DNA of 64,000 nucleotides from an uncultured Bacteroidales bacterium (GTDB lineage Bacteria > Bacteroidota > Bacteroidia > Bacteroidales > CAYTAU01). Location of the stretch: NCBI GenBank assembly GCA_964442075.1, contig CAYTWH010000008.1, positions 1,828 to 65,827 of the forward strand. The letters are read 5' to 3'. Position 1 is the stretch's first letter. Each line of letters starts with the position of its first letter. The notes below the pieces were generated by a model. That model was not told the DNA's origin. It worked only from the letters and a program-made list of their open reading frames with translations, and ran no database searches. The position numbers were made by a program, and so were the translations under genes. Shown piece after piece: positions 3,553 through 59,915 of the stretch.

Positions 3553-5538
3553 TTAAAACCTCATACCAAATAAAATCAAATAATTTCTTTGAGGCATTGG
3601 TCTGAATAAAATAGAACGATATTCTTCGTTAAATAAATTATATATTTTGAATTGTATGCTTAGGTCAAACTTTTTGAATTCAAAATTTTTACCAATAAAT
3701 AAATTATTCATATAATACGGATAAAGCCAATCGCGTAACGAATAATTGTTAGTTGATGTTGTAAAACGTTCGCTATACGAATTATGAATATACGATACAG
3801 AGTATCCATTTCTCGATATATTTAAAAATACATTTCCTGAATGTACAGGAACATATACAAGTTGTTTACCATACGATTCTTCTCCCCATATTTCAGTATC
3901 ACCATAATTTAACGAACTTGTATATGCATAATTTGCATTAGCTTTTACTGCATATTTGCCTACACTAAAATTTAATTTAATATTATATTCCAAGCCTTTT
4001 GAAACTACATTACTTATGTTTTTTGGTGTCCAGTAGCCTTTAACTGTTGGTATCCATATTATCCAATTGTTAATGTCAGAATAAAAACTTGTAATAGAAT
4101 TTTCAATTAATATATTGTTGACTTTACTTGAAACAGATAATCCAATATCACCCGAAATACCATTTTCGGGTAATATATCGGGGTTTCCACCAGGTTGCCA
4201 GTATAAATCGTTGAGGCTAGGAAAATGATAATTATTTCCAATATTTCCTTTAATAAAAAATTGATGTTTATCAGAAATTAAATAATCAAAACCAAAATAA
4301 GGAATTAAAGGAATTGATCCAGAACTGATAAAATTTTTCCTTATCATTACAAGACAAGCTAAACGTTTGCCAAATTTTTGATTTAACGATACAAATGATA
4401 AATGTTCAATTCTTGTTGTATCGTAACCTGTTTTACTAATAGTGTCGGTTGTGTTTACTTTATGAAAATTAGTACTATAATTAAAATTTAAGTGTGTGTT
4501 TTCACTCAATTTATATTTGTAGTATAGCTTGTTATATGAGCTTATAGAATTACTTTCAGAATATATTGCATTTTCATAATCGTAGCCCGAAATAAAATTT
4601 TCCAGAGAGTATGTCATATCTTTTAAAATTAAACCTGATGTAAATCCTATTTTTGAGCTTTCTCCCGATTTTGAAATTTCACCTATCAATCTGTTGCTAA
4701 TATCAATTTGCTTGCTAATATTAGAGTAATCAGTGCCTTCGTAGGTGTTTAATCTTGGCAGACTCCTGTCTGATGTTTGATGCCAGTATTTTAATGAAGC
4801 TGTAATATTATTTTTTAAACGCAAATAAAACTCCTGTAATAAGCCATATTGTTGATATTCTGCATTCATATTTTCCTGAACAGGATAAATATATTGTCCA
4901 GTAAGGGAATCAATATCTGCAATATTCTTATTTTTAAATTTAAAATTGTTTTTCGAAAAAGAATAGAATGCTCTTGTTTTTGTTTGAAACTTTTTGTTCC
5001 CAAAATTTATTTGCAGAAAATCGCTGTAAGTTCGATAACTACCAAATCCCTGCATAAATTTACCGCTAAATTTATTATTCCAGTCAGGTTTATTATTGAT
5101 ACTTATACTTCCCCCCAAAGCACCACTTGTATTTTGAATTGAACCTGCTCCGTGTAATAATGAAACATCATCAATAAAATAAACCGGAATTAGCGAAAAA
5201 TCAACCTGACCAATCATAGGCGAACTAATACTTATATCATTCCACAATACATCGGTATGAGAAGGACTGGTACCACGAAACGAAACAGTTGCCAATGCTC
5301 CACGTCCTGATGTTTTAACAAATACAGGAGTGCTTTCCGAAAGTATATCAGATAATGATGCATTAATCGATTTCATTAATATCAATGTATCAATTCTGGT
5401 AATTTTAATACCAGTTTCATCAATAGGTCGTTTTGCAGTAATTTTAACTTCGGGAATATCAATTGTATCTCTGCTTATTTGCGAATAATTATAAAAAGGT
5501 ATTATTAGAAAAAATAATATGATAACTGAGATTTTCAT
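3553..5538 (-). CDS. TonB-dependent outer-membrane receptor, BtuB-like (under a cobalamin riboswitch)
   Basis: It has a signal peptide, a plug-domain segment (SLSDILSESTPVFVKTSGRGALATVSFRGTSPSHTDVLWNDISI) and a long beta-barrel ending in a terminal aromatic (...LILFGMRF). Confidence 0.9.
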   Translation of the reverse strand: MKISVIILFFLIIPFYNYSQISRDTIDIPEVKITAKRPIDETGIKITRIDTLILMKSINASLSDILSESTPVFVKTSGRGALATVSFRGTSPSHTDVLWNDISISSPMIGQVDFSLIPVYFIDDVSLLHGAGSIQNTSGALGGSISINNKPDWNNKFSGKFMQGFGSYRTYSDFLQINFGNKKFQTKTRAFYSFSKNNFKFKNKNIADIDSLTGQYIYPVQENMNAEYQQYGLLQEFYLRLKNNITASLKYWHQTSDRSLPRLNTYEGTDYSNISKQIDISNRLIGEISKSGESSKIGFTSGLILKDMTYSLENFISGYDYENAIYSESNSISSYNKLYYKYKLSENTHLNFNYSTNFHKVNTTDTISKTGYDTTRIEHLSFVSLNQKFGKRLACLVMIRKNFISSGSIPLIPYFGFDYLISDKHQFFIKGNIGNNYHFPSLNDLYWQPGGNPDILPENGISGDIGLSVSSKVNNILIENSITSFYSDINNWIIWIPTVKGYWTPKNISNVVSKGLEYNIKLNFSVGKYAVKANANYAYTSSLNYGDTEIWGEESYGKQLVYVPVHSGNVFLNISRNGYSVSYIHNSYSERFTTSTNNYSLRDWLYPYYMNNLFIGKNFEFKKFDLSIQFKIYNLFNEEYRSILFRPMPQRNYLILFGMRF

Positions 5539-7560: not shown

Positions 7561-7694
7561 TTTTTTAATTTAAAAGTTAAACATTACAAATAATTGATTG
7601 ATAACAATCAACACTCATAAGCTAACTCGGGGAAATTTAATGATATTGTTTTTGTATCATTTTGCTTTTTACCCGAAAGCTTCAAGAATATTGA

Positions 7695-7855
7695 AATAAT
7701 AATGGTAGGTCTTCTGACTTTCCCTTTTTGACGCCTTCCCGCCCCAATTACGTGGAGCAGTGGCTAAGACTGTCAAATAAACTCAATAAAGAGTTGGGAT
7801 TACAGCAGCGGGTACTGTACAGGATTTTCACCTGTTTCCCTCTTAGTCACTTATT
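7695..7855 (-). promoter_or_regulatory. Cobalamin (B12) riboswitch
   Basis: The minus strand reads AGAGGGAAACAGGTGAAAATCCTGTACAGTACCCGCTGCTGTAATCCC...AGCCACTGCTCCACGTAATTGGGGCGGGAAGGCGTC...AGTCAGAAGACCTACC. It therefore contains the conserved GGGAA/GGTGAAAATCC/CCCGC-CTGTAA core, the GCCACTG element and a B12 box close to the AGYCMGGAGACCKGCC consensus. Confidence 0.9.
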
Positions 7856-7886
7856 GTAAATACAATATTGTGAACCATCAACTGTA

Positions 7887-7894
7887 CAAATGTA
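7887..7894 (-). promoter_or_regulatory. Candidate Bacteroidota -7 promoter element (TAnnTTTG) for the riboswitch operon
   Basis: The minus strand reads TACATTTG, with a TTTG 17 nt further upstream (7912-7915). It lies about 30 nt upstream of the riboswitch 5' end. Confidence 0.4.
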
Positions 7895-10061: not shown

Positions 10062-13000
10062 ATGAAAAAATTAACTACATTATTAATTGCAAGCATCTTT
10101 ATTACAAACTGTTTACTATCGCAAATGGGTTTTACGGTTGACACTAATCAAGGATGTACCCCTTTAACTGTAAATTTTACTAATACAAGTCCTGTTGGTC
10201 CAACTTACACATGGGATTTTGGAGATGGCTCTCCAATTTACACAGGATATCATGCAACACACACTTTTTATACAGGCGGTCATTGGGTAACACTTTCTGG
10301 TAATGAGGGTAATATACACACAACAATTGAGGTTATTGGAGCAGATGAATTTAATCCAACAGATGGAAGCCAATTCTGTCCGGGAGAAGAAGTTGAATTT
10401 GCTTTTGAAAGATCTTGTTCCTATACAATATGGGATTTCGGAGATGGAATTATTGACACTTCTAATCATAATAAGTCATCTCACATATATAACACACCCG
10501 GATTTTATGATGTTACTTTAATTGTTGATGGCGAATGTGGAGTTGATACTGTAACACAAACTTATGAAGTTACAAGCTCTGCCATTCCAAGTGTAAATGC
10601 TTATCGTAATAATGGCTCCTTATGCCCTGGCGAAGAAATTGCATTTGGTTGTTATGAGAATTCAGAAAGTTATTTTTGGGATTTTGACGATGGTACAAAT
10701 TCAACAGAAAAGAGTCCACATCATGTATTCAATACAATAGGAAGTAAAAGAGTAATATTAACATTAACAAATATTTGTGGAAATTCAAATTCCGACACAT
10801 TATATATACATGTGATGGATAATATGCCTGCATCTGCAGATTTTGATTATTCAAGCCCATCATGTCCAAATGATTTTATAAACTTCAATAGTGTTTGGTA
10901 TGGCACTTATGAATGGGATTTTGGACCATTAGGAACTTCCAGCCTAAGTGATCCTGCGATAATGTATACAGATACAGGTACATATAGCGTTCAATTGATT
11001 TTAACAAATTATTGTGGTAATTCAGATACAGTTCAACACGATATTGTAGTAGAATATGACACTTTAAATAAACCTCAAGCAGATATTTCTTTTGATATAA
11101 ACAATGGTTATGGTGTGGATACTCTTAAAATATGTCCAAACCAAGAAGTAAAATTTAGAAATGACACCTGGAGTGGAAGCGATTTATATTTCCATTGGGA
11201 TTTTAATGATGGCAACTATTCATATTCAAAAGATGCAATTCATACTTTTACTACAGCAGGATTATATGAAGTTATTATGACAGCTACAAATAATTGTAAT
11301 GGGCAAAGATCTGCATCCCTGTGGGTTGACGTAGACCCTACAACAATGCCAAATTCAAGTTTACAGGCAATGCCAGATACTATTTGCCCGGGTGAAAGTG
11401 CATTTTTCTATAATGAAGAAGGAGAAAATGATGACGATAATACAAGTTATTTCTATTCAATATGGTTTGGCGATGGAGATTCAATTGTTAATGTAACCTC
11501 TACACCCGATTCTCTTCCTTTCTTTCATCATACTTATAATACACCAGGAACTTATAATTATACTTTTACCGTTTCCAATTTATGCAATAACTCAGAAAAT
11601 AATTCTGGAACAATAATAGTTGATGACACAGGAAATCACGAAACTTTTTATTTTATTGGTAACTCTGCTGATACATCATCTTCAGGAATGGGCCATGAAG
11701 ATCTTCCATGTCCCGGCGATCTGATAGAATTCTTTGGAATAGGTGGAGCTTCAATAATTTGGGATTTTGGTGATGGTACATTAGATACAGGAATGCATGT
11801 ATTTCACTCTTATCCCGACACAGGAACATACACAATATTACTTTATGCAACTGATGGATGCGGTCTTACTGACACATTAGAAACTTATGCAACTGTAGAT
11901 GATTCTTCATTTGCAGATTCTTGGTTTGATGTTGATAAAGAGTATGCCTGTGTAGGTGATACAATTAATTTTGATTACCATAGAGATGGTTTTGAAATAA
12001 TGAGCTATGATTTTGAATGGCAATTTGGTGATGGAATTACTTCAAATTATGTTAATCCACGACACATATATGCATCAGCAGGCGACTATTTTGTAAAACT
12101 TATTGTTACTAATGGTTGTGGGGCAGATTCTTCTACACGAATGATACATATTGATGCTCCAACAATTGATTTTACAGTTGATCAAAATATTATAGCACCA
12201 AGTACAACAGTAAATTTTACAAATCTAACAACTAATGCAACAGCATATTTATGGTATTTTGGTGATGGAACAAGTAGTACTTTACAAAATCCATCTCATA
12301 CATATACAAACTTTGGTTCTTATAATGTTACCTTAATTGCTGCTTCATCAGGCGGATGTACTGATTTCCTGAAAAAGAATAACTACATTCATGTTCACAA
12401 TATGGAAATATCATATTCATCTGTTAATGATATTACATGTAATGGAGATGATGATGGCTCAATTGATATTGTAGTATCCGGAGGTCAATATCCTTACTCT
12501 TATTTATGGTCTAATGGTGATATAGCTCAACATATTAGCAACTTACCATCGGGAGGCTATTCTGTAACAATTACAGATTATAATGGAGCAACAACAACAG
12601 GAACTTATACAATTACTGAACCTCCTGCATTTTCTGGTGGAATTTCTAAAACCGATATTACTTGTTATGGACTTAATGATGGTTCTGCAAGTATTAGTTT
12701 AACAGGAGGAAATCCTCCTTATGAATTTTTATGGTCTAATGGAGCAACAAGTCCGAGTATTTCAAATGTTATAGCAGGATATTATTTTGCAATTGTAAAA
12801 GATGCTAATACCTGTGTCGTTAATCAAGGAATTACAATAAATGAGCCTATTGAATTAGCAGTAAATCATAATGGTTCAGTGAACCCTTCTACATGTGGAG
12901 GAGCAGATGGTTGGATTAATGTTAATGCAACAGGAGGTTCAGGTGGTTATTCATATGTTTGGAGTGCAAATGCTGGCGGAGCTTCAGGAACTGGAGCATC

Positions 13001-14837
13001 AAATTTAGCTGCTGACGTATATTCAGTAACAGTTTATGATAGTAATATGTGTTCAGATATACTTTCAGAGGGATTGAGTGATCCAACAGGACCAGTTATT
13101 GACCCAACACACAATATGCAAGGTGTTTCTTGTCATGATGGTAGTGATGGATATATAATAATCTCTGCTACAGGAGTTGCTCCACTATCATTCTTATGGT
13201 CTAATACTGCAACTGACTCAATGATTACAAATATAACTGCAGGAACTTATAGTTTAACAATTACTGATGGAAATTTATGTAAAAGTACTTGTGTAAGAGA
13301 AATTGATAATCCTGATGAGTTAGTATTATCAATTTTACCTGATTATCCAACTTGTTATGGAGGTTATGATGGTGGTGCACAAGCCTTTGTTTCTGGAGGA
13401 ACTACGTGGGGTAATTATAATTACCAATGGTCAAACGGCTCTCAAGATTCTATTATGGTAAACAGGCCTGCAGGAAATTATTCTCTTACTGTTACGGATG
13501 GTCCAGGTTGTACAATCGTTGGCAACACAACACTTACTAATCCTCCACAAATAATAATTGATATGTATCCTTCAAGTGTAACATTTTATGGACAATCTGA
13601 TGGTTATATTGATATTATGGTAAATAATGGAATACTTCCATACCAATTCTTGTGGTCGAATGGAGAAACTACAGAAGATATTGGTGGATTATCAGCAGGT
13701 GTTTATACCGTTACAATTATAGACGATAATTCTTGTCAAAATATTGCAACAGATACTGTTCATCAACCACTAGCTCTTAATGTTAATATTACATCTAGTG
13801 GAAATACAACTTTCTGTTCAGGAAATGGGATTATTCTTGATGCAGGTGCGGGTTACGTAGATTATCAATGGTCTGCTAATGCAAATAATGCAACTACAAG
13901 GATGATTCCTGTTAGTATATCTGGCACATACTATGTTACAGTAACATCAATAAATAGTTATGGAATTGGTTCAATAATAGTTGATGTAAAAGAACCTTAT
14001 GCAAATCAGGAAATTTGTATTGTAACTATTGATAGCACTACTGGAAAAAATCTAGTAATATGGGAAAAAGCTTATAATGAAGGAATAGAATCATTCAATA
14101 TCTACAAAGAATCTACCGTTTCAAACGTTTACGATTCAATAGGCAATCTTCCTTTTGATGACATGAGTGAATTTATTGATTACACTTCAAATCCTCAAAC
14201 TGTTGCAGCAAGATATAAGATATCTGTTGTTGACACCTGTGGTAACGAATCGGCATTAAGCCTTGCTCACAAAACAATGCACTTAACTGTTAGCACCGGT
14301 CTTGGAGTATATAATCTAATTTGGGAAAATTACGAAGGTTTTACTTTCGGTTCCTATACAATATTTAGAGGAACTGACCAGAATAATTTGTTGCCTATTG
14401 GAGCAATACAAAGCACACTAACAACATATACCGATTATCAGCCAATAGGTCTTTATTATTATCAAATTTCTGTTGAAAAAACATCACCATGTATTCCAAC
14501 AAGTAGTGCTAAGGCAAACGGAGGTCCTTATAGTCATTCTGTTTCAAACCTTGAGGATAATGGTATGAATCCAACAGGTATTGAGCAATTATATGTTTCT
14601 GATGATATGTTAATTTATCCTAATCCTTTTACAAATTCAACAACAATAAAATTCAATAACTCTGATAATTCTGACTTTGATCTTACATTGTTCGATATAT
14701 CGGGCAAAATAGTAAAAATTATCAGTAATATTAATACCGGTTTAATTCATCTTGATAGAGATGAACTAACTGCAGGATTTTATACTGTTGAATTAAAAGG
14801 AAATAAAACACTTAGAGGGCGTATTATTATTAAATAA
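10062..14837 (+). CDS. Giant T9SS-secreted surface protein with PKD-like repeats, SprB-type repeats and a type-A CTD
   Basis: About ten WDFGDG-containing PKD-like modules are followed by about seven C-x-G-x-x-DG...GG..PY.(F/Y)LWSNG SprB-type repeats. The C-terminus reads LIYPNPFTNSTTIKF...GFYTVEL. Confidence 0.9.
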   Translation: MKKLTTLLIASIFITNCLLSQMGFTVDTNQGCTPLTVNFTNTSPVGPTYTWDFGDGSPIYTGYHATHTFYTGGHWVTLSGNEGNIHTTIEVIGADEFNPTDGSQFCPGEEVEFAFERSCSYTIWDFGDGIIDTSNHNKSSHIYNTPGFYDVTLIVDGECGVDTVTQTYEVTSSAIPSVNAYRNNGSLCPGEEIAFGCYENSESYFWDFDDGTNSTEKSPHHVFNTIGSKRVILTLTNICGNSNSDTLYIHVMDNMPASADFDYSSPSCPNDFINFNSVWYGTYEWDFGPLGTSSLSDPAIMYTDTGTYSVQLILTNYCGNSDTVQHDIVVEYDTLNKPQADISFDINNGYGVDTLKICPNQEVKFRNDTWSGSDLYFHWDFNDGNYSYSKDAIHTFTTAGLYEVIMTATNNCNGQRSASLWVDVDPTTMPNSSLQAMPDTICPGESAFFYNEEGENDDDNTSYFYSIWFGDGDSIVNVTSTPDSLPFFHHTYNTPGTYNYTFTVSNLCNNSENNSGTIIVDDTGNHETFYFIGNSADTSSSGMGHEDLPCPGDLIEFFGIGGASIIWDFGDGTLDTGMHVFHSYPDTGTYTILLYATDGCGLTDTLETYATVDDSSFADSWFDVDKEYACVGDTINFDYHRDGFEIMSYDFEWQFGDGITSNYVNPRHIYASAGDYFVKLIVTNGCGADSSTRMIHIDAPTIDFTVDQNIIAPSTTVNFTNLTTNATAYLWYFGDGTSSTLQNPSHTYTNFGSYNVTLIAASSGGCTDFLKKNNYIHVHNMEISYSSVNDITCNGDDDGSIDIVVSGGQYPYSYLWSNGDIAQHISNLPSGGYSVTITDYNGATTTGTYTITEPPAFSGGISKTDITCYGLNDGSASISLTGGNPPYEFLWSNGATSPSISNVIAGYYFAIVKDANTCVVNQGITINEPIELAVNHNGSVNPSTCGGADGWINVNATGGSGGYSYVWSANAGGASGTGASNLAADVYSVTVYDSNMCSDILSEGLSDPTGPVIDPTHNMQGVSCHDGSDGYIIISATGVAPLSFLWSNTATDSMITNITAGTYSLTITDGNLCKSTCVREIDNPDELVLSILPDYPTCYGGYDGGAQAFVSGGTTWGNYNYQWSNGSQDSIMVNRPAGNYSLTVTDGPGCTIVGNTTLTNPPQIIIDMYPSSVTFYGQSDGYIDIMVNNGILPYQFLWSNGETTEDIGGLSAGVYTVTIIDDNSCQNIATDTVHQPLALNVNITSSGNTTFCSGNGIILDAGAGYVDYQWSANANNATTRMIPVSISGTYYVTVTSINSYGIGSIIVDVKEPYANQEICIVTIDSTTGKNLVIWEKAYNEGIESFNIYKESTVSNVYDSIGNLPFDDMSEFIDYTSNPQTVAARYKISVVDTCGNESALSLAHKTMHLTVSTGLGVYNLIWENYEGFTFGSYTIFRGTDQNNLLPIGAIQSTLTTYTDYQPIGLYYYQISVEKTSPCIPTSSAKANGGPYSHSVSNLEDNGMNPTGIEQLYVSDDMLIYPNPFTNSTTIKFNNSDNSDFDLTLFDISGKIVKIISNINTGLIHLDRDELTAGFYTVELKGNKTLRGRIIIK

Positions 14838-14866
14838 TAGTTGTTCCGTAAAAACATTCTATGTTC

Positions 14867-14889
14867 GGCGTAGGCTTTCTGCCTACGTC
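14867..14889 (+). terminator. GC-rich hairpin downstream of the 1591-aa gene
   Basis: GGCGTAGGC-TTTCT-GCCTACGTC lies 30 nt after the stop in otherwise AT-rich DNA. The T-tract after it is weak. Confidence 0.5.
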
Positions 14890-15164
14890 GTTAAATATTA
14901 TTTTATTATTTCTGTATCTATAAAGTTATCAATAATTAACTTGTCTCCTACTTCTGCCTTTTTAAAGAGCATTAACAGATAATGAGGCTCATTGAGTCTT
15001 AAATATGCTTCAAATGTTTCTGATTTAAATTATGCGGCGCTATTGTCTACTTATACAAACATACAATAACTATACCTATTGCGTATAAATATTATTGAAT
15101 TTATTAACAAATGTTAAACGTTTTTTTAATAAATATGACATATATTGGATAAATAGCTATACGC

Positions 15165-15808
15165 CAACCTACAAACATAGGGCACTTTCTTAACAAAGTG
15201 GGGTCAGCGAGTAACTCGTTAAGAGCAATTTCTTAAGAAAACGTGCTTCCCGAGTTACTTGCAGACCATGTTTTTTTAGCAAAATGGGGTTCCCGAGTTA
15301 CTTAAATAGGGTATTTTCTATGCAAATTGAGGTCATCGACTTACTCGATAGCTGTGTTTTTAACCAAAATTGGGTACTAAACTTACTCGTTAAGGGCATT
15401 TTTTTACCAAAGTGGGGTTAACGAGTTACTTGCAGACCATGTTTTTTTAGCAAAATGGGGTTCCCGAGTTACTTAAATAGGGTATTTTCTATGCAAATTG
15501 AGGTCATCGACTTACTCGATAGCTGTGTTTTTAACCAAAATTGGGTACTAAACTTACTCGTTAAGGGCATTTTTTTACCAAAGTGGGGTTAACGAGTTAC
15601 TCGTTAAGTACACTTTCTTAAGAAAACATATGTTGCGAGTTACTCGTTAAGGGCAGTTTTTTACTAAAGTGGGGTTAGCGAGTTACTCGTTAAGGGCACT
15701 TTTTTACTAAAGTGGGGTATGTAAGCTGCCAACAAAGGGCAAATTTTTGATAATGTTGCCTCATCAAGTTACTCGTTAAAGGCATATTTTAATAAATCGG
15801 GACAGGCT
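15165..15808. repeat. Tandem array of about 15 units of 43 bp, each with a dyad-symmetric core
   Basis: The anchor CGAGT(T/A)ACTCG recurs at 15208, 15251, 15294, 15337, 15379, 15422, 15465, 15508, 15550, 15593, 15636, 15679 and 15765. The best units read CGAGTTACTCGTTAAGGGCAyTTTTTTACyAAAGTGGGGTTAr. Segments 15251-15421 and 15422-15592 are identical. Confidence 0.9.
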
Positions 15809-15853
15809 CTAACAGTGGAGAAAGTCCTACTCTTAGGATGATTTAGGGGGTTA

Positions 15854-16744
15854 TTACTGTTTAATTATCTTCTTTATTACTGTCTCTTTATCAGTTATTA
15901 TTTTTATAAAGTAAATGCCTTGTGGCTCATGGCTTAAGTCTATTTCTTTTAAACCTAACAGGTTTTCAAAACCTGTCATGGTTTTTCCTGTAATATCTAA
16001 AACCTCTATTCTCTTGATTCCATCTGCCTCTATTGTTATTAATCCTGTTGTGGGGTTTGGGAATATTGAAATATTACTTAATGTTTTTCCGGCATCTTTT
16101 ACGTTTGTAAGGATATAACATGAATTATATGAAGGATTTTGATATTTAAGTGTGTCATTTTCTGAAAAACATAATAAATCAAAAGAATCACCACCTACTG
16201 TTCCATTGGTATAATGCAATATACCACTTAAACTGCCAAGCCCTTCAACCCATCGTTCTATTCCACAACCCATGGTGTCGCCAAAAATTGGGTTCATATG
16301 AAATTGCCTTTTATAATTTCCTCCTATTAATATACTGTCAATTTCGCAAACTATAAATTGTATTGAATTAAAATACCAATTACTGCCAAAACTGTTTATA
16401 CCTGCAATATATAGTGTGTCATTTATATTTGCTCCAAAATCATAAATAAGGCTTTCTTGTAATGATGTATCTGTTCTGTAATAAACTTCTTTGTCTATGG
16501 TTTCCCGTATATAGCCATATGGTAACCAACTTGTCTGAAACTCATCAGTTGAACGAAATACTTTCTTATAGTTTTCTAAATCAATAATTGTATCCTGTTC
16601 TATTTTAATATATTCTGTTATTATAGTAAATGAAGGCAAGCGATGTATAACTGTACTCCAAAGTTTATTGGTATCAACTAAAGTCTGACTAATTGCAATG
16701 CTTGAGATCAATATTATTACTAAAAAAGAAATTTGTTTTTTCAT
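15854..16744 (-). CDS. Secreted hypothetical protein with a T9SS type-A CTD
   Basis: It has a signal peptide and the C-terminus ISIFPNPTTGLITIEADG...GIYFIKI. Confidence 0.85.
   Translation of the reverse strand: MKKQISFLVIILISSIAISQTLVDTNKLWSTVIHRLPSFTIITEYIKIEQDTIIDLENYKKVFRSTDEFQTSWLPYGYIRETIDKEVYYRTDTSLQESLIYDFGANINDTLYIAGINSFGSNWYFNSIQFIVCEIDSILIGGNYKRQFHMNPIFGDTMGCGIERWVEGLGSLSGILHYTNGTVGGDSFDLLCFSENDTLKYQNPSYNSCYILTNVKDAGKTLSNISIFPNPTTGLITIEADGIKRIEVLDITGKTMTGFENLLGLKEIDLSHEPQGIYFIKIITDKETVIKKIIKQ
15951..15985. repeat. Second, slightly decayed copy of the CTD palindrome (encodes TMTGFENLLGL)
   Basis: The sequence is AAACCTAACAGGTTT-TCA-AAACCTGTCATGGTTT. It sits at the same relative position in the CTD as the copy at 5662-5694. 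Confidence 0.75.
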
Positions 16745-16943
16745 AAGTAAATGTTTTGCTTATTCTTTATATTAGACTCAAAATGTAATAGAAAGGTTGC
16801 ATAATAATGATAATATAATTTATTCTTTGCAATCTATTATTTTCAAAGATACAAAATTTATAATAATTTGCAAACTACTATTTACCTATTCTGAAAAATG
16901 CCTAACTTTGTAAACTAAAATAATTGAAAATAATTGAAATAAA

Positions 16944-18155
16944 ATGAATAAACTAAAAGTAGGTATTTTAAAAGAAACAAAAACTCCTCCAGACAGAAGA
17001 GTTGCTGTTGCTCCAAAACAAGCAAAAGAATTAGTAGCTCGTTTTAAAAATGTTGAATTAGTAATACAATCTAGTGATAATAGATGTTTTAAGGATAATG
17101 AATATACCGATTTGGGATTAACTGTAGTTAATGATGTTAGCGATTGTGATATTTTACTTGGAGTTAAAGAAGTTCATATTCCTGAATTACTGGAAAATAA
17201 AAAATATCTTTTCTTTTCTCATACTGCAAAAATGCAAGCATATAATCAACCATTATTAAAACAAATGATTGATAAAAATATTCAGATGATAGATCATGAA
17301 TGTTTAACAGATAAAAATAATATTAGAGTTGTTGCTTTTGGAAGATGGGCAGGTATTGTTGGCGCTTATAATGGACTGATAGCTTTTGGGAAACGCAGCA
17401 ATTTGTTTGATTTAAAACGTGCAAAAGATTGCCACGATATGGAAGATATGCTTAATGAGGTAAGAAAAATAAAACTTCCTGCAATTAAAATCCTTATTAC
17501 AGGAACAGGTAGAGTTGGTATGGGTGCAATTGAAACTCTTGCACCATTAAATTTAAAACAAGTTACATACAGTGATTTTTTAAATAATAAATACGACGAA
17601 GCTGTTATTTGTCAGATTGATGCTGATGTTTACACAAAACGTAAAGATGGAAGCAAGTTTGAGTTTCAACATTTTTTCAAAAACCCGGATATGTATGAAG
17701 GTACTTTCAAAGCATTTACAAAAGTAACAGATATTTATATCCCTAGTCATTTTTGGGCTAAGCGTTCACCTGTATTTATGACAGCAGAAGACTATAAAGC
17801 TTCCGATTTTAAAATTTCAGTAATTGCAGATATTAGCTGCGATATAAAAGACCCTATTCCATCTACTTTAAGAGCCTCAACTATTGCGGAACCGTTTTAT
17901 GGATATAATCCAAGTACAGGAGAAGAAGGCGATGCATGGGATTTAAAAAATGTTACAGTTATGGCTGTTGATAATCTTCCCGGAGAATTACCACGCGATG
18001 CTTCAGTTGATTTTAGCAAAGCATTACTGGATAAAATTTTCCCATCTTTATTTGGCGAAGATAGCGATGGGATAATTGAACGTGCAAGTATTACAAAAGA
18101 TGGAAAATTAACAGCTATATATGCTTATCTACAGGGTTTTTTGAATGGAAAATAG
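16944..18155 (+). CDS. AlaDH/PNT-fold NAD(P)-dependent dehydrogenase, saccharopine dehydrogenase (LOR/SDH)-like
   Basis: The N-terminus GILKETKTPPDRRVAVAP is typical of the AlaDH/PNT N-domain. There is a Rossmann motif ILITGTGRVGMGA, and the length is about 400 aa. Confidence 0.75.
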   Translation: MNKLKVGILKETKTPPDRRVAVAPKQAKELVARFKNVELVIQSSDNRCFKDNEYTDLGLTVVNDVSDCDILLGVKEVHIPELLENKKYLFFSHTAKMQAYNQPLLKQMIDKNIQMIDHECLTDKNNIRVVAFGRWAGIVGAYNGLIAFGKRSNLFDLKRAKDCHDMEDMLNEVRKIKLPAIKILITGTGRVGMGAIETLAPLNLKQVTYSDFLNNKYDEAVICQIDADVYTKRKDGSKFEFQHFFKNPDMYEGTFKAFTKVTDIYIPSHFWAKRSPVFMTAEDYKASDFKISVIADISCDIKDPIPSTLRASTIAEPFYGYNPSTGEEGDAWDLKNVTVMAVDNLPGELPRDASVDFSKALLDKIFPSLFGEDSDGIIERASITKDGKLTAIYAYLQGFLNGK

Positions 18156-24842: not shown

Positions 24843-27791
24843 ATGACAGCAAATAAATATATATTTATATTAGTATTCCTGTTTTCTGCATTATTTGTTA
24901 AGGCACAGTTTGTATATAATAACGGAGCAATTTTTCATATAGATAATATTATTGTACACGTAAACGGTGATCTTGAAAATGGAACTTCCGGAAATATTAC
25001 AAATGAAGGTGACTTTTATATTACAAGTGATATTACAAATAATGCTCTAATTGGCGGAAACGGAACATACAATATCTCAGGCGATTGGATTAACAACAAC
25101 AACTTTAATCCGGGTTTAAGTAGTGTTTTTCTTGAAGGTGCCAATCAATTTATTACAGGAACTGTGTCAACAACATTTAATAACCTTAATTTAATTGGTA
25201 CAGGAATAAAAACATTGCAGATAAATACTGCTCTTGATGGCATTTTAGCTTTAAACGACAGAGAACTTGCTACCAATGACTATACAATGTCTATATTAAC
25301 AACAAATATTAATGCAATTACACGTACAACAGGTTTTGTAAGTAGTTTAAATAACGGAAATTTATTAAGAGCTACTTCAAGTAATTTAGTTTATGAATTC
25401 CCTGTTGGCTCAAGTATTGGAACATTAAGATACAGACCAGTTGAATTGCTTCCTGCTTCTTCTAGTGTTAACACATTTACTGTTCAAATGGTTAATGATG
25501 ATGCAACAAGTGATGGTTATGACAGAACTCAAACAGATACCACTATTTGTGCAACAGATCCTGATTTTTATCACAGAATAAACCGAACAACAGGAAGTGA
25601 TGCTGCTGATATTTCAATTTATTTTGATGAACTTGTTGATGGTTTATGGGATGGAATGGCTCAATGGAACACAACACCATTAACATTATGGGAAAATATG
25701 GGATTGGCAAATGTTATTTCAGCAAGTCCATTAAGTAGTGTAACTGTTCAAAACTGGAATGATTTTTCTACTGACCCATATATTTTAGCATTAGAAATGC
25801 CAAATGTTGACCTTGGTCCGGATACATTTTTTTGTGATGGCAGCTATATTACTATAGATGCAGGTACAGGTTTTGATTCGTATGCATGGTCTGATGGATT
25901 AACGACAACACAAACAATTGATATTACTACACCGGATACATATTATATTACTGTCACAACTCAAGGTTGTACAGCTATTGATAGTATTACTGTTATTCAA
26001 TATCCAAATCCTGTAGCTGATGCAGGTGAAAATGCTAGTATTTGTGCAGGAGAATCAATAACTTTAACAGGTAGCGGTGGTATATCTTATGAATGGAGTA
26101 CTACTGAAACAAATCAAAGCATTATTGTGAACCCTAATGTTACTACAACCTATTGGATAACAGTTACAGATAATTATTGTTGGGATGATGATAGTGTTAT
26201 TGTAACAGTTACTCCTCTTCCTAATGCTTATGCAGGTGTTGATCAAACTATATGTTTAGGAGATACAATATCACTTACGGCAACAGGTGGTTCAAGTTAT
26301 GAATGGAGTACAGGTTCGTTTAATCAAATTATTGATGTAAATCCTACATTTACTACAATTTATTATGTTACTGTAACAGATAATAGTTGTAATGAAGTCG
26401 ATACAGTTATAGTTAATGTTATTCCTTTTGTTACTGCCGATGCCGGTATTGATCAATCTATATGTGAAGGCGATACACTTGTTTTAACTGCTACCGGTGG
26501 AGTAAATTATTTGTGGAGTACTGCTGAAACCACAATCAGTATTACAGTTAATCCATCAAATACAACAACATATTATGTAACAGTTTCTGCAGGCACTTGT
26601 GGTGATATTGATAGCGTAACAGTTAGTGTTACTCCAATTCCTACAGCCGATGCGGGCTTTGACCAAACAATTTGTGAAGGAAACTCAACTACACTTACTG
26701 CCACAGGAGGAGGAACTTACTCATGGAGCACAGCACAAACCGGAGCAACAATCACAGTTATCCCAAATAGTACAACCATGTATTTTGTAACAGTTACTGT
26801 TAATGGATGCACCAATACTGATAGTGTAACTGTATATACAAATACTAATCCTACTCCAAGTATTACAGGAACATTAAGTTTCTGTACTGGAGGTTCTTCT
26901 ACTTTAGATGCCGGAGCTGGATATACAACTTATTCATGGTCACCTTCGGGTAATACTCAAACAATAAATGTAACTACAGCAGGGACATATTATGTTACTG
27001 TTAGCGATGCAAATGGATGTACAGGAAGTGATAATGTTGATGTGATAGTTCTACCAATACCAAATGCTTTTGCAGGACAGGATATTAATATTTGTTTTGG
27101 AGACACTATTCAACTTAATGCCTCAGGTGGAACAAGTTATCAATGGTCACCTGTCTCCGGTTTGTCAAATCCAAACATTAGTAATCCTTATGCAAACCCT
27201 TCTATAACAACTGAGTATTTGGTTATTGTATCAAATGGTACTTGTGCTGATAGTGATGCGCTTATAGTTAATGTATTGTCGCAACCTAGCATTTTTGCTG
27301 GAAATGATACTTCAATATATTTAGGTGATGAATATCAGATTAATGCAACTAATCAGTCAACATATTCTTATTTGTGGACTCCAACAAATTATTTAAGTAA
27401 TCCTTTAATATACAACCCTATCTCAACACCAGATATTGATATAACATACACTGTTGAAGTTACAGATGAAAATGGATGTAAGTCTTCTGACGATATTACA
27501 ATCTATATTATAGAAAAACCTGGAGGTAATTTAATTATTTATAACACTTTTACTCCAAATGGCGATAATGTAAATGATTTCTGGGAAATTGATAATATTG
27601 AACAATATCCTAACAATATTATTGAAGTATATAACAGAAATGGACACAAAGTGTTTGAAACCACCAATTATCAGAACAATTGGGATGGAAAATATTTTGG
27701 CAATAATTTGCCAGCCGCCACATATTATTATATAATAGACCTGGGAAACGGAACAGAAGTGCATAAAGGTAATGTAACAATAATACGATAA
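24843..27791 (+). CDS. Large adhesin-like protein with a T9SS type-B (gliding-motility-associated) C-terminal domain
   Basis: It has tandem modules of about 70-75 aa (ADAG.DQ.IC.G....LTA.GG..Y.WST). The C-terminus IIYNTFTPNGDNVNDFWEIDNIEQYPNN.IEVYNRNGHKVFE...GNVTIIR matches the type-B sorting domain. Confidence 0.9.
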   Translation: MTANKYIFILVFLFSALFVKAQFVYNNGAIFHIDNIIVHVNGDLENGTSGNITNEGDFYITSDITNNALIGGNGTYNISGDWINNNNFNPGLSSVFLEGANQFITGTVSTTFNNLNLIGTGIKTLQINTALDGILALNDRELATNDYTMSILTTNINAITRTTGFVSSLNNGNLLRATSSNLVYEFPVGSSIGTLRYRPVELLPASSSVNTFTVQMVNDDATSDGYDRTQTDTTICATDPDFYHRINRTTGSDAADISIYFDELVDGLWDGMAQWNTTPLTLWENMGLANVISASPLSSVTVQNWNDFSTDPYILALEMPNVDLGPDTFFCDGSYITIDAGTGFDSYAWSDGLTTTQTIDITTPDTYYITVTTQGCTAIDSITVIQYPNPVADAGENASICAGESITLTGSGGISYEWSTTETNQSIIVNPNVTTTYWITVTDNYCWDDDSVIVTVTPLPNAYAGVDQTICLGDTISLTATGGSSYEWSTGSFNQIIDVNPTFTTIYYVTVTDNSCNEVDTVIVNVIPFVTADAGIDQSICEGDTLVLTATGGVNYLWSTAETTISITVNPSNTTTYYVTVSAGTCGDIDSVTVSVTPIPTADAGFDQTICEGNSTTLTATGGGTYSWSTAQTGATITVIPNSTTMYFVTVTVNGCTNTDSVTVYTNTNPTPSITGTLSFCTGGSSTLDAGAGYTTYSWSPSGNTQTINVTTAGTYYVTVSDANGCTGSDNVDVIVLPIPNAFAGQDINICFGDTIQLNASGGTSYQWSPVSGLSNPNISNPYANPSITTEYLVIVSNGTCADSDALIVNVLSQPSIFAGNDTSIYLGDEYQINATNQSTYSYLWTPTNYLSNPLIYNPISTPDIDITYTVEVTDENGCKSSDDITIYIIEKPGGNLIIYNTFTPNGDNVNDFWEIDNIEQYPNNIIEVYNRNGHKVFETTNYQNNWDGKYFGNNLPAATYYYIIDLGNGTEVHKGNVTIIR

Positions 27792-27794
27792 GCC

Positions 27795-28703
27795 ATGAAA
27801 ATATATATATTAATACTAATAATTTTAGGATTGACGATTACAGTTAATGCTCAGCAATTGCCACAAATAAGTCAAAGAACTACTGATATAATGGTATATA
27901 ACCCTGCTTATGTAGGTGCAACAGAAAATCCTGAAATAATACTGCATCACCGTAGTCAATGGGTTGGTTTTACGGGAGCACCTACAACTCAGCTATTAAG
28001 TTATAATGGAAAAGTAAAAGGGAATATGGGTCTTGGAGGCTATATAGTTAATGATATTACAGGACCATCAAGACGTATTACATTTAATGCAAATTATGCC
28101 TATCATTTGGAATTTGATAATTTTAAACTATCGCTTGGAATTGCTGCAACTGTTATGCAATATGGTCTCGATGGGAATAATATTACTATAAAAGATCAAA
28201 CAGATGTTTCTGTACAGCAAGGAGTTTCAGACAGAGCATGGAAACCGGATGCTTCTTTTGGTGCTTATCTTTATAGCGAGAAATATTTTGTTGGACTATC
28301 AGTAATGCAACTAATTGGCTCAAAAATTAAATTATACAATAGTGATTTTGAAGGAGAAATACCCCTTGCAAATCATTTCTACATTATAAGCGGTTATCAT
28401 ATTGATTTTGAGGACGAATTGGTATTTACACCTTCGTTTTTATTTAATACAACAATTGGCAGTCCAAGTCAGATAGACTTTAATTGTAAGCTAGACTATT
28501 TAAATAAAGTGTTTGGAGGAATAACATTCAGGTACAACGATGCCGTTGTTCTAATGGGAGGTATAAAAATTAAAGAACAGTTCAGCATTGCTTATTCTTA
28601 TGATATTGTAACATCTAATTTAAGAAAATATAATAGTGGTTCTCACGAAATAATTTTATCGTTTACAATATTGCCTGCAAATAGTGATGATTCTTTATTA
28701 TAA
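27795..28703 (+). CDS. PorP/SprF-family T9SS outer-membrane protein
   Basis: It has a signal peptide followed by QQLPQISQRTTDIMVYNPAYVGA...LHHRSQWVGFTGAPTT, the typical PorP/SprF N-terminus. It lies 3 nt downstream of the type-B cargo gene. Confidence 0.9.
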   Translation: MKIYILILIILGLTITVNAQQLPQISQRTTDIMVYNPAYVGATENPEIILHHRSQWVGFTGAPTTQLLSYNGKVKGNMGLGGYIVNDITGPSRRITFNANYAYHLEFDNFKLSLGIAATVMQYGLDGNNITIKDQTDVSVQQGVSDRAWKPDASFGAYLYSEKYFVGLSVMQLIGSKIKLYNSDFEGEIPLANHFYIISGYHIDFEDELVFTPSFLFNTTIGSPSQIDFNCKLDYLNKVFGGITFRYNDAVVLMGGIKIKEQFSIAYSYDIVTSNLRKYNSGSHEIILSFTILPANSDDSLL

Positions 28704-49187: not shown

Positions 49188-49204
49188 CTTAAGACTGCAT
49201 TTTG

Positions 49205-49280
49205 TCGGAGTGAAAAGATTTGAACTTTCGACCCCTGGTCCCCCAGACCAGTACTCTAAACCATGCTGAGCTACACCCCG
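49205..49280 (-). tRNA. tRNA-Pro (anticodon GGG)
   Basis: The minus strand reads CGGGGTGTAGCTCAGCATGGTTTAGAGTACTGGTCTGGGGGACCAGGGGTCGAAAGTTCAAATCTTTTCACTCCGA. It has a 7-bp acceptor stem, an anticodon stem CTGGT/ACCAG with loop CTGGGGG, and a T-loop GTTCAAATC. No CCA is encoded. Confidence 0.9.
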
Positions 49281-59411: not shown

Positions 59412-59915
59412 ATGTACGCAATAGTAGAAATAGCAGGACAACAGTTTAAAGTTGAGAAATCACAAAAAATATTTGTTCATCGTTTAAACAATGATGAAGG
59501 TTCAAAACTTAATTTTGACAAAGTTTTGCTAATTGATAATGATAAAGATGTAATTGTTGGCGATCCAATTATAAAAAACGCTAGTATAAAAGCAAAAGTG
59601 ATAACTCACCTTAAAGGAGATAAAGTAAAAGTTTTTAAAAAGAAAAGACGAAAAGGGTATAAAGTATTAAATGGTCACAGACAATTTTTTACTGAAATAT
59701 TAATTGAAGATATTCTTGAAAAAGGCAGTACAAAAAAAGAAACTCCTGCAAAGGAAGAAAAACCCGAAAAAGTTGTAAGCAAAGCTAAAGTAAAAGAAAC
59801 TCCAAAAGCAAAAGCAGAAGTAAAAGCAAAGGCAAAACCAGCAGTAAAAAAAGTTGCAAAAAGCTCTGACGCAAAACCTAAAGCAAAAAAAGCAAAACCT
59901 GAAGCAAAAAAATAA
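59412..59915 (+). CDS. rplU: 50S ribosomal protein L21 with a Lys/Ala-rich C-terminal extension
   Basis: It has the N-terminus MYAIVEIAGQQFKVEK and ...KKRRKGYKVLNGHRQ. The last 65 aa or so are a K/A/P/E-rich tail. Confidence 0.9.
   Translation: MYAIVEIAGQQFKVEKSQKIFVHRLNNDEGSKLNFDKVLLIDNDKDVIVGDPIIKNASIKAKVITHLKGDKVKVFKKKRRKGYKVLNGHRQFFTEILIEDILEKGSTKKETPAKEEKPEKVVSKAKVKETPKAKAEVKAKAKPAVKKVAKSSDAKPKAKKAKPEAKK

Follow-up and report, generated by a model that had tools for sequence, protein, structure and literature searches.

The 43-bp array in the window (the whole 64,000-nucleotide stretch of DNA that was analysed) is real and constrained, and it is one member of a multi-locus family that occupies at least four gene neighbourhoods in one species-level clade and belongs among the dispersed repeat elements of bacteria. 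A phased protein-binding array is the best mechanism for this family, as yet unproven. The preliminary description had treated the array as a single locus, a view that gave way to a family found at several chromosomal loci with a polarity from leader to tail.

Other copies were identified using pattern scans, which need an exact match to the anchor. The genome scan, run with a two-anchor pattern on one genome per species for 185,579 species, returned 74 loci, of which one was a homologous array (L023, in the 'Bacteroidales' MAG GCA_964435855.1) and the remaining ones were 42-bp coding repeats or chance matches, with no Porphyromonas locus among them. Scanning JGI metagenomes with a one-unit pattern gave four further copies, L098 (the L023 locus again), L100, L102 and L103. 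The sister-strain loci L107, L108 and L109 were found through the neighbouring AlaDH-like protein, and their genes were 96% identical in DNA to those of the window. L108 lies in the MAG of L023, so two arrays seem to be present in that genome. On the question of relatives, which the preliminary description had raised, homologous arrays were present at several loci of closely related genomes; among the 185,579 species representatives the family was found in only one narrow clade, a confinement that is typical of selfish repeats too. Blastn searches and two pattern scans of viral sequences, covering collections of plasmids, phages and viruses, returned only chance matches or 42-bp coding repeats, and in view of this lack of a true match a phage or plasmid origin was rejected. 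The anchor also retrieved Paludibacter arrays with a 21.5/43-bp period, which probably form a family of their own. The window genome is that of a Bacteroidota with 30% G+C, and the source labels of the homologues disagreed on its order, being Bacteroidales/Marinilabiliales for AlaDH and Flavobacteriaceae for RlmF.

The arrays shared a layout of leader, 8–15 units of 43 bp and degenerate tail, flanked as follows.

Window locus: PKD/SprB protein (1591 aa) on the leader side; 296-aa T9SS protein on the tail side.
L098/L023 locus: SBBP protein on the leader side; PorP-like protein on the tail side.
L103 locus: BNR T9SS protein on the leader side; 176-aa lipoprotein-like protein on the tail side.
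L102 locus: contig end on the leader side; 170-aa protein on the tail side.

A tail motif, TAAGT.G.T..ATGGGTATGGATTTTT, was common to L098, L100 and L103. The tail-side gene pointed into the array at 5/5 copies (four gene neighbourhoods), and no neighbour gene was common to all loci beyond T9SS C-terminal domains. The genomic context was chromosomal (nusA, infB, uvrB, prs).

Within the window, the array and its surroundings comprised the following features, with the basis of each in brackets.

10062–14837, + strand: left neighbour, a protein of 1591 aa with PKD/SprB repeats and a C-terminal sorting domain of T9SS type (Pfam PKD, SprB, Por_Secre_tail).
14838–15100, no strand: AT-rich ORF-free spacer with little similarity to the leaders of other loci (sequence).
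15101–15164, + strand: leader (blastn of window 15101–15430 against L103; leader alignment).
15165–15807: the 43-bp array, 15 head-to-tail units made up of 13 x 43 bp and 2 x 42 bp (in-register unit tables).
15165–15250, + strand: units 1–2, identical in L103 and variant in L102 (unit tables).
15251–15421, + strand: units 3–6 (43+43+42+43 bp), the first 171-bp copy (TRF).
15422–15592, + strand: duplicate of units 3–6, the second 171-bp copy, with its copy number taken from the source assembly (TRF).
15589–15607: perfect 9+1+9 dyad, TTAACGAGT-T-ACTCGTTAA, crossing a unit junction and the sole perfect one (sequence; pair counts over 39 distinct units).
15593–15721, + strand: units 11–13 (unit tables).
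15722–15807, + strand: two degenerate terminal units, similar to the pair of units that opens the L098/L023 array (unit tables, alignment).
15808–15853, no strand: non-repeat tail, ending at the stop codon of the right neighbour and absent from the sister strain.
15854–16744, − strand: right neighbour, a T9SS cargo protein of 296 aa whose gene points into the array.

The earlier count of about 15 units held, while its end at about 15808 and its single 42-bp unit became an end at 15807 and two 42-bp units, one starting at 15337 and its copy at 15508. TRF placed period-43 repeats at 15228–15796 and a period of 171 (2.1 copies) on a four-unit block, in which 15251–15421 and 15422–15592 are 100% identical; with this perfect 171-bp duplication, 11 of the 15 units are therefore distinct. 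The preliminary description had overlooked the duplication. Unit 1 is degenerate, with CAACCTACAAA where the anchor would be expected, and unit 2 has its T-run replaced by the TTTCTTAAGAAA palindrome, a variant that unit 11 also carries; the consensus is best represented by units 12 and 13 (CGAGTTACTCGTTAAGGGCAnTTTTTTACTAAAGTGGGGT...). Each anchor position given previously was right, and both of the reported dyads were present, the perfect one at 15589–15607 and a second at 15675–15693 with one mismatch. Allowing at most one mismatch, CGAGYNRCTCG had nine matches in the window, all within the array (shuffles expect 0.48; 0/100 reached 9), and no solitary copy of the operator-like palindrome was found outside the array in the 64-kb window.

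Both flanking genes encode Por_Secre_tail domains according to Pfam, in agreement with the earlier placement of the array between the convergent 3′ ends of two T9SS-cargo genes. The left gene has its 3′ end toward the array and is carried by independent contigs (L104–L106) that enter the array, and an inverted repeat able to form a hairpin lies immediately after it at ~14865–14893, not clearly conserved at other loci. The leader of ~65 bp was 71% identical to that of L103 (47/66), conservation between the window and L103 extended over ~65–100 bp, and the last ~30 bp of the leader (ATAAAT..CTATA.G.CAA) were recognisable at 4/4 loci. The gap at 14838–15853, previously called the largest, is the longest stretch separating the ORFs listed for the window (100 aa or more) and, as also stated before, holds no ORF of 60 aa or more. 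A peptide repeat or small ORF was rejected, with stops throughout all six frames; the sole 45-aa ORF in the array differed in the L102 copy by non-synonymous changes only, and the interrupted frames together with these changes bear out the earlier view that this is not a peptide repeat. An oriC or DnaA-box array was likewise not supported, since on reading the units only a few resembled a DnaA box and the gene context gave no hint of an origin.

Support for the two halves of the array came from independent assemblies of seven samples. The left flank and units 1–6 were reproduced to 15223, 15403 or 15422, and the right flank from 15522, 15536, 15543, 15635, 15693 or 15728 on, by independent metagenome contigs at 99.98–100% identity, and both halves of the array are therefore real. 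The contig stops at 15403/15422 and starts at 15522/15536 are as expected at a true repeat branch after unit 6. All these short-read contigs end inside the array, and because of these breaks the join 15422–15522 and the copy number of the 171-bp block come from the source assembly alone, as does the assignment of the two flanks to one another. Such breaks, and a duplication and join known from one assembly, speak for an assembly artefact or a young neutral minisatellite private to the window locus; we consider this highly improbable, because homologous arrays occur in other assemblies and at other loci, including a GenBank MAG, and because the units are old (40% diverged) and conserved between loci. 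The evidence in hand largely refutes it, and the concern over a short-read artefact in the preliminary description is settled for both halves, with the join remaining a product of the source assembly.

We assessed constraint on the units from their lengths, substitutions and base pairing. Across all arrays, 46/52 units were 43 bp long and 6/52 were 42 bp, and the 38 distinct units differed on average at 17/43 positions (~40%). A minimum spanning tree of these 38 units required at least 282 substitutions, compared with three one-base deletions. In bacterial non-coding DNA, an order of magnitude more indels would be expected. The arrays are strictly phased, at 4.1 helical turns per unit (10.5 bp per turn), and this 43-bp phasing is strongly constrained. 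Each unit carries, at fixed positions and on a fixed strand, a dyad core (C-G-A-G-T/C-N-A/G-C-T-C-G), a GGG(C/T)A followed by a T5–7 tract, and a GGGG run; the most conserved columns were A7, C12 (invariant), T27/T28 (invariant), T30/T31, G22 and T44, and low-information columns occurred in runs of at most 3 nt.

Pairing between dyad columns 1–9 and 11–19 was found in 71.9% of cells, compared with 29–43% for slid partner columns, and among 500 shuffles none reached the pairing percentage and one reached the covariation score. The innermost pair, 9–11, covaries (T-A in 28 units, C-G in 7, with independent support thin because the C-G variants may descend from few events), and because it flanks a single central base it is not a pair of an RNA hairpin. 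Mismatches in the dyad were balanced (35 G-T vs. 31 A-C), so there is no strand bias. These results indicate that the dyad CGAGT-N-ACTCG is a selected feature. Its right arm is less conserved than its left and the palindrome is perfect in one unit only, which counts against reading the units as sites for a dimer. The G3/T-run/G4 module, of constant strand, was conserved as strongly as the dyad, and a simple dimer-site model does not account for it. A second inverted repeat, CAC TTT ... AAA GTG (columns 23–28/35–40), was 75.6% paired (44–58% when slid) and missing from AGTTTTGTGGGG-type units; its G-T excess on the + strand (31 vs. 7) also counts against the dimer-site reading.

The strand of the G-runs and T-run, the polarity of leader and degenerate tail and the orientation of the tail genes are needless for symmetric dimer sites and would fit a transcript. 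The array could be transcribed as a G/U-rich (+) lncRNA with hairpins and single-stranded G-runs, serving as a sponge or yielding unit-length RNAs by a CsrB-, ToxI- or TIGR/CRISPR-like logic, or its C/A-rich strand could form a structured 3′ UTR of the tail-side gene, which reads toward the array at all five copies in the four neighbourhoods. We judge such transcription unlikely. Beyond the L103 tail, reading in the direction of the array, there is a terminator-like hairpin with a T-run behind it, and the pairing and G-U excess of the second inverted repeat on the + strand are consistent with RNA, but the AGTTTTGTGGGG-type units lack this second hairpin, the dyad pair 9–11 covaries while being impossible in RNA, and the wobble counts of the dyad are balanced. 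The fold of the whole array was well below that of shuffles (z = −5.2 on the + strand), but this was equally so for the other strand (z = −5.7), and RNAalifold on 39 units gave 0 consensus pairs. Rfam gave no match at the gathering score, only sub-threshold miRNA noise, and the sole match to CRISPR-DR was outside the array (E = 2.1). Among the loci compared, no Bacteroidetes-type promoter was conserved in the leaders in the array direction; a TAnnTTTG box was present in unit 1 on the minus strand at 3/4 loci. A DNA-level element fits better than an RNA fold and is favoured.

The arrays resemble those of CRISPR and TIGR in their leader–array–degenerate end polarity and the palindromic element in each unit, with 43 falling within the range of TIGR unit lengths (PMC12045711; bioRxiv 10.64898/2026.09.09.750476). 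CRISPR was rejected, as it had been previously, because there is no split into constant repeat and unique spacer, the variation spreads across the whole unit with variable segments homologous between units, and no cas gene or Cas domain was found in the 64 kb or beside the other copies. In TIGR arrays, two alternating 8–12-nt repeats (or stems) separate two variable 8–12-nt spacers (PMC12045711); no such spacers were found here, the low-information runs being at most 3 nt, and no tas gene or Nop-domain match was present in the window or beside the other copies (a divergent Tas could escape Pfam), so TIGR-Tas was set aside. A type III toxin–antitoxin locus of ToxI type was likewise rejected, since the genes on the tail side point into the array, show no relationship to one another and gave no ToxN match.

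Recognisably the same units follow one another in unchanged order in the arrays of the window, L103, L102 and L100/L107. Units 3–6 are present in L103 and L102 as a single occurrence with their order kept, and units 11–12 are identical in L107/L100, with unit 11 identical also in L103 and both variant in L102. Over units 1–7, the window and L103 were identical at 299/300 positions, with 71% identity in the leader (65 bp) and unrelated genes, while the window and L107 were identical at 177/177 positions over units 5–12 and divergent from unit 13, with genes 96% identical. Identity to the window was 90% for L102, without an indel over 343 bp, and ~72% for L098. The copies have evolved in concert, and recombination or gene conversion between them, on top of constraint on length and site, is the simplest account, although loci may also be nearly identical through recent duplication or cross-joined assemblies and not through selection, and contigs that cross an array could be cross-joined via the shared core.

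Strain breakpoints fell inside or at the edge of arrays, and the arrays themselves border blocks of T9SS cargo genes that vary between strains. Positions 3674–5976 of L107 correspond to window 15853–18155 at 96.2% identity (blastn), with synteny resuming exactly at 15853, and the sister-strain array, which is identical to L100, has three extra genes between it and the 296-aa gene. Both arrays of the L023/L108 MAG adjoin a PorP-like gene, in 1.35-kb segments that are 91.7% identical before the flanks diverge. The RlmF protein of L103 recurred with exactly the same sequence in three samples that hold the organism of the window, and L116, the sister-strain version of the L103 locus, was without both the 176-aa gene and the array. 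In a protein search with the L103 BNR gene, longer repeat-rich proteins ranked above the query, which was not among the matches listed.

Strain-variable presence, as at L116 and at the array border where L107 and the window are three genes apart, and duplication of the 1.35-kb segment of array and PorP-like gene would both be natural for a selfish or relic family of dispersed minisatellites of BrickBuilt/PgRS, BOX or MIRU type, spread or shuffled by recombination or by a transposase from elsewhere and affecting only neighbour genes and rearrangement. The modular leader, tandem units and tail at several intergenic loci of one clade fit such a family, and the layout is the same as that of BrickBuilt in P. 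gingivalis (PMC4596501) and modular like that of BOX elements, boxA-boxB(n)-boxC (PMC3049150). We nevertheless consider it somewhat unlikely. Presence and absence involve whole gene blocks and not clean insertions, neither terminal inverted repeats (IS5-like or other) nor target-site duplications were found, and 281 kb of related DNA contained no solitary units or leader–tail copies. The units, moreover, are 40% diverged, invariant in length and individually conserved, compared with 0–11% mismatch and 0–6% indels within BrickBuilt elements (PMC4596501), and a neutral array would be homogenised by slippage or dephased by indels.

By analogy, the nearest described kind of genomic object is the leader–minisatellite–tail element represented by BrickBuilt and PgRS, together with pneumococcal BOX. 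BrickBuilt of P. gingivalis has 23-nt units, a leader, a tail and 19 intergenic copies, many of them beside PorSS-CTD genes, and PgRS (MITE464) has 41-nt units (PMC4596501). The likeness is one of layout, in that both occur in the same phylum and consist of spacer-less tandem units between a non-repetitive leader and tail, with several intergenic copies per genome in one species group, often near T9SS-CTD genes. In contrast to BrickBuilt and PgRS, few copies of the present family were detected, terminal inverted repeats and TSDs are lacking, and the units are 43 bp and not 23 nt, strongly diverged, invariant in length and individually conserved in order. A MITE with IS5-like ends was rejected, given that no IS5-like TIR was found with up to three mismatches and that an inverted repeat between leader and tail was not above chance; the possibility, named in the preliminary description, of a fragment of a known IS or MITE found no support in terminal inverted repeats of IS5-like or other MITE type. 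Dispersed modular intergenic repeat families also include the BIME/REP clusters of E. coli and the MIRU loci of mycobacteria. Like BOX, BIME/REP and MIRU, the array family is dispersed, intergenic and palindromic, with a tandem inner module of a few tens of bp and strain-variable copy number; unlike them, it keeps unit order across loci and comprises a handful of loci with no solitary units, whereas in those families copies number tens to hundreds and short single-module forms also occur.

The closest match in unit architecture is sopC, which has 12 x 43 bp with an inverted repeat per unit, a spacing of ~four helical turns and variant sites that are mostly terminal (PMC3177203). The window array is alike in having direct repeats of exactly 43 bp, ~12–15 units with an inverted repeat each, ~four-turn spacing and variant units concentrated at the ends. 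It differs in its odd palindrome of 5+1+5 to 9+1+9, compared with the 16-bp inverted repeat of sopC, in units that are 60% alike and not near 100%, in the extra strand-fixed G3/T-run/G4 module, and in being chromosomal at several loci without nearby sopA/sopB or ParA/ParB. When the main window ORFs (100 aa or longer) and the genes beside four other copies were scanned with Pfam, no par, sop, rep, cas, tas, recombinase or HTH-partner gene was found near the arrays, which agrees with the earlier statement that parA/parB/sopAB, replication and recombinase genes are absent. Blastn against 72,556 plasmids revealed no sequence similarity to sopC. The absence of par genes, the chromosomal position at several loci and the lack of sequence similarity refute membership of the sopC/partition family, so the analogy drawn in the preliminary description stands for architecture (43-bp units with a dyad each) and not for partition.

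Our tentative reading, quite possible though short of probable, is that the units are phased DNA sites at which a dimeric protein encoded in trans would bind, with a likeness to sopC confined to architecture, and that they are carried on a dispersed element family of BrickBuilt/BOX-like kind. The array of the window would then belong to a multi-locus, lineage-specific family of intergenic elements with a modular build, whose units, ~four turns apart, would be bound by a DNA-binding dimer with its gene at another place in the genome. The T-tract, which is in phase, may add intrinsic bending, such that the loaded array would take on a regular higher-order nucleoprotein structure, resembling the sopC–SopB architecture without being a partition centromere, and recombination or gene conversion may keep copies at different loci alike. 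Protein binding, bending and any cellular role of the arrays are what we infer from this layout. The absence of a candidate binder (ParB, HTH partner, Rep, recombinase) beside any copy counts against the dimer-site reading.

A bolder version, which we regard as quite unlikely, is that the family represents a new chromosomal cis-element, with several strictly phased sopC-like arrays per genome loaded by a lineage-specific dimeric protein, forming nucleoprotein barriers at the 3′ ends of genes for surface proteins and acting as switch-region-like recombination sites that exchange T9SS cargo blocks between loci and strains. Its proposal of recombination sites follows from the near-identity of the array cores.

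Even on the ordinary reading, the arrays are useful in defining a family of repeats at which short-read assemblies break in fixed positions, and they show that a minisatellite can diverge and still hold its period exactly and its units in order from locus to locus. Should the units prove to be protein sites, the family would be a chromosomal, multi-copy counterpart of the plasmid centromere-type array without partition genes, and would point to a new system that organises or insulates DNA in Bacteroidota. Should the arrays drive the exchange of surface-gene blocks, they would offer T9SS-bearing bacteria a means of varying their surface from strain to strain.

Four units of the array (window 15251-15592) are tandemly duplicated as two perfect copies of a 171-bp block, which is single-copy in the homologous arrays of contigs L103 and L102 and whose edges coincide with the break points of short-read contigs.

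A promoter-like element of 50-100 bp, which contains a -7 box of the Bacteroidetes type (TATATTTG), is found repeatedly on L103, L116 (the sister-strain version of the L103 locus, without array) and the array-bearing contigs L102, L098 and L107, at the following positions:

L103: 11476-11576, promoter-like element
L103: 7837-7925, promoter-like element
L116: 6397-6497, promoter-like element
L116: 11125-11176, promoter-like element
L116: 12266-12316, promoter-like element
L116: 13178-13229, promoter-like element
L102: 3969-4021, promoter-like element
L098: 9895-9957, promoter-like element
L098: 11796-11856, promoter-like element
L107: 1352-1411, promoter-like element

Genes lie directly downstream of the copies for which gene positions were checked, and include those reading into the L102 and L103 arrays. 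The element of these five contigs was not found in the window.

T9SS cargo genes are very dense across window 640-55874 (no fewer than 11 carry a Por_Secre_tail or CHU_C domain), with the housekeeping genes nusA, infB, uvrB, prs, ispG and serS interspersed among them. In this set a CHU_C protein precedes PorP/SprF (24843-28703), and DUF4465/T9SS, T9SS-tail, TonB-dependent receptor and DUF5074 genes form a minus-strand cluster downstream of a riboswitch. Further window features were:

7687-7894, minus strand: this cobalamin riboswitch (94 bits)
49204-49280, minus strand: tRNA-Pro (GGG)
59412-59915, plus strand: ribosomal protein L21 gene

The L21 protein carries a Lys/Ala/Pro-rich C-terminal tail of 60 aa, coded by short AAGCAA-type repeats.

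A 1.35-kb segment comprising an array tail and a PorP-like outer-membrane gene occurs in two copies with 91.7% identity (129-1467 of sister-strain contig L107 versus 6431-5093 of array contig L023); their contexts differ, and one MAG apparently holds both.

Non-coding tandem arrays were also observed on four contigs of the Paludibacter MAG CAZMQV01 (L066 3053-3428; L028, L041 and L070), with half-units of 21-22 bp and a TRF period of 43. Both the 9-mer CGAGTTACT and AAAGTG occur in these arrays as well as in the unit of the window; the arrays may be a distant relative, or the resemblance may be a chance effect of the search pattern.
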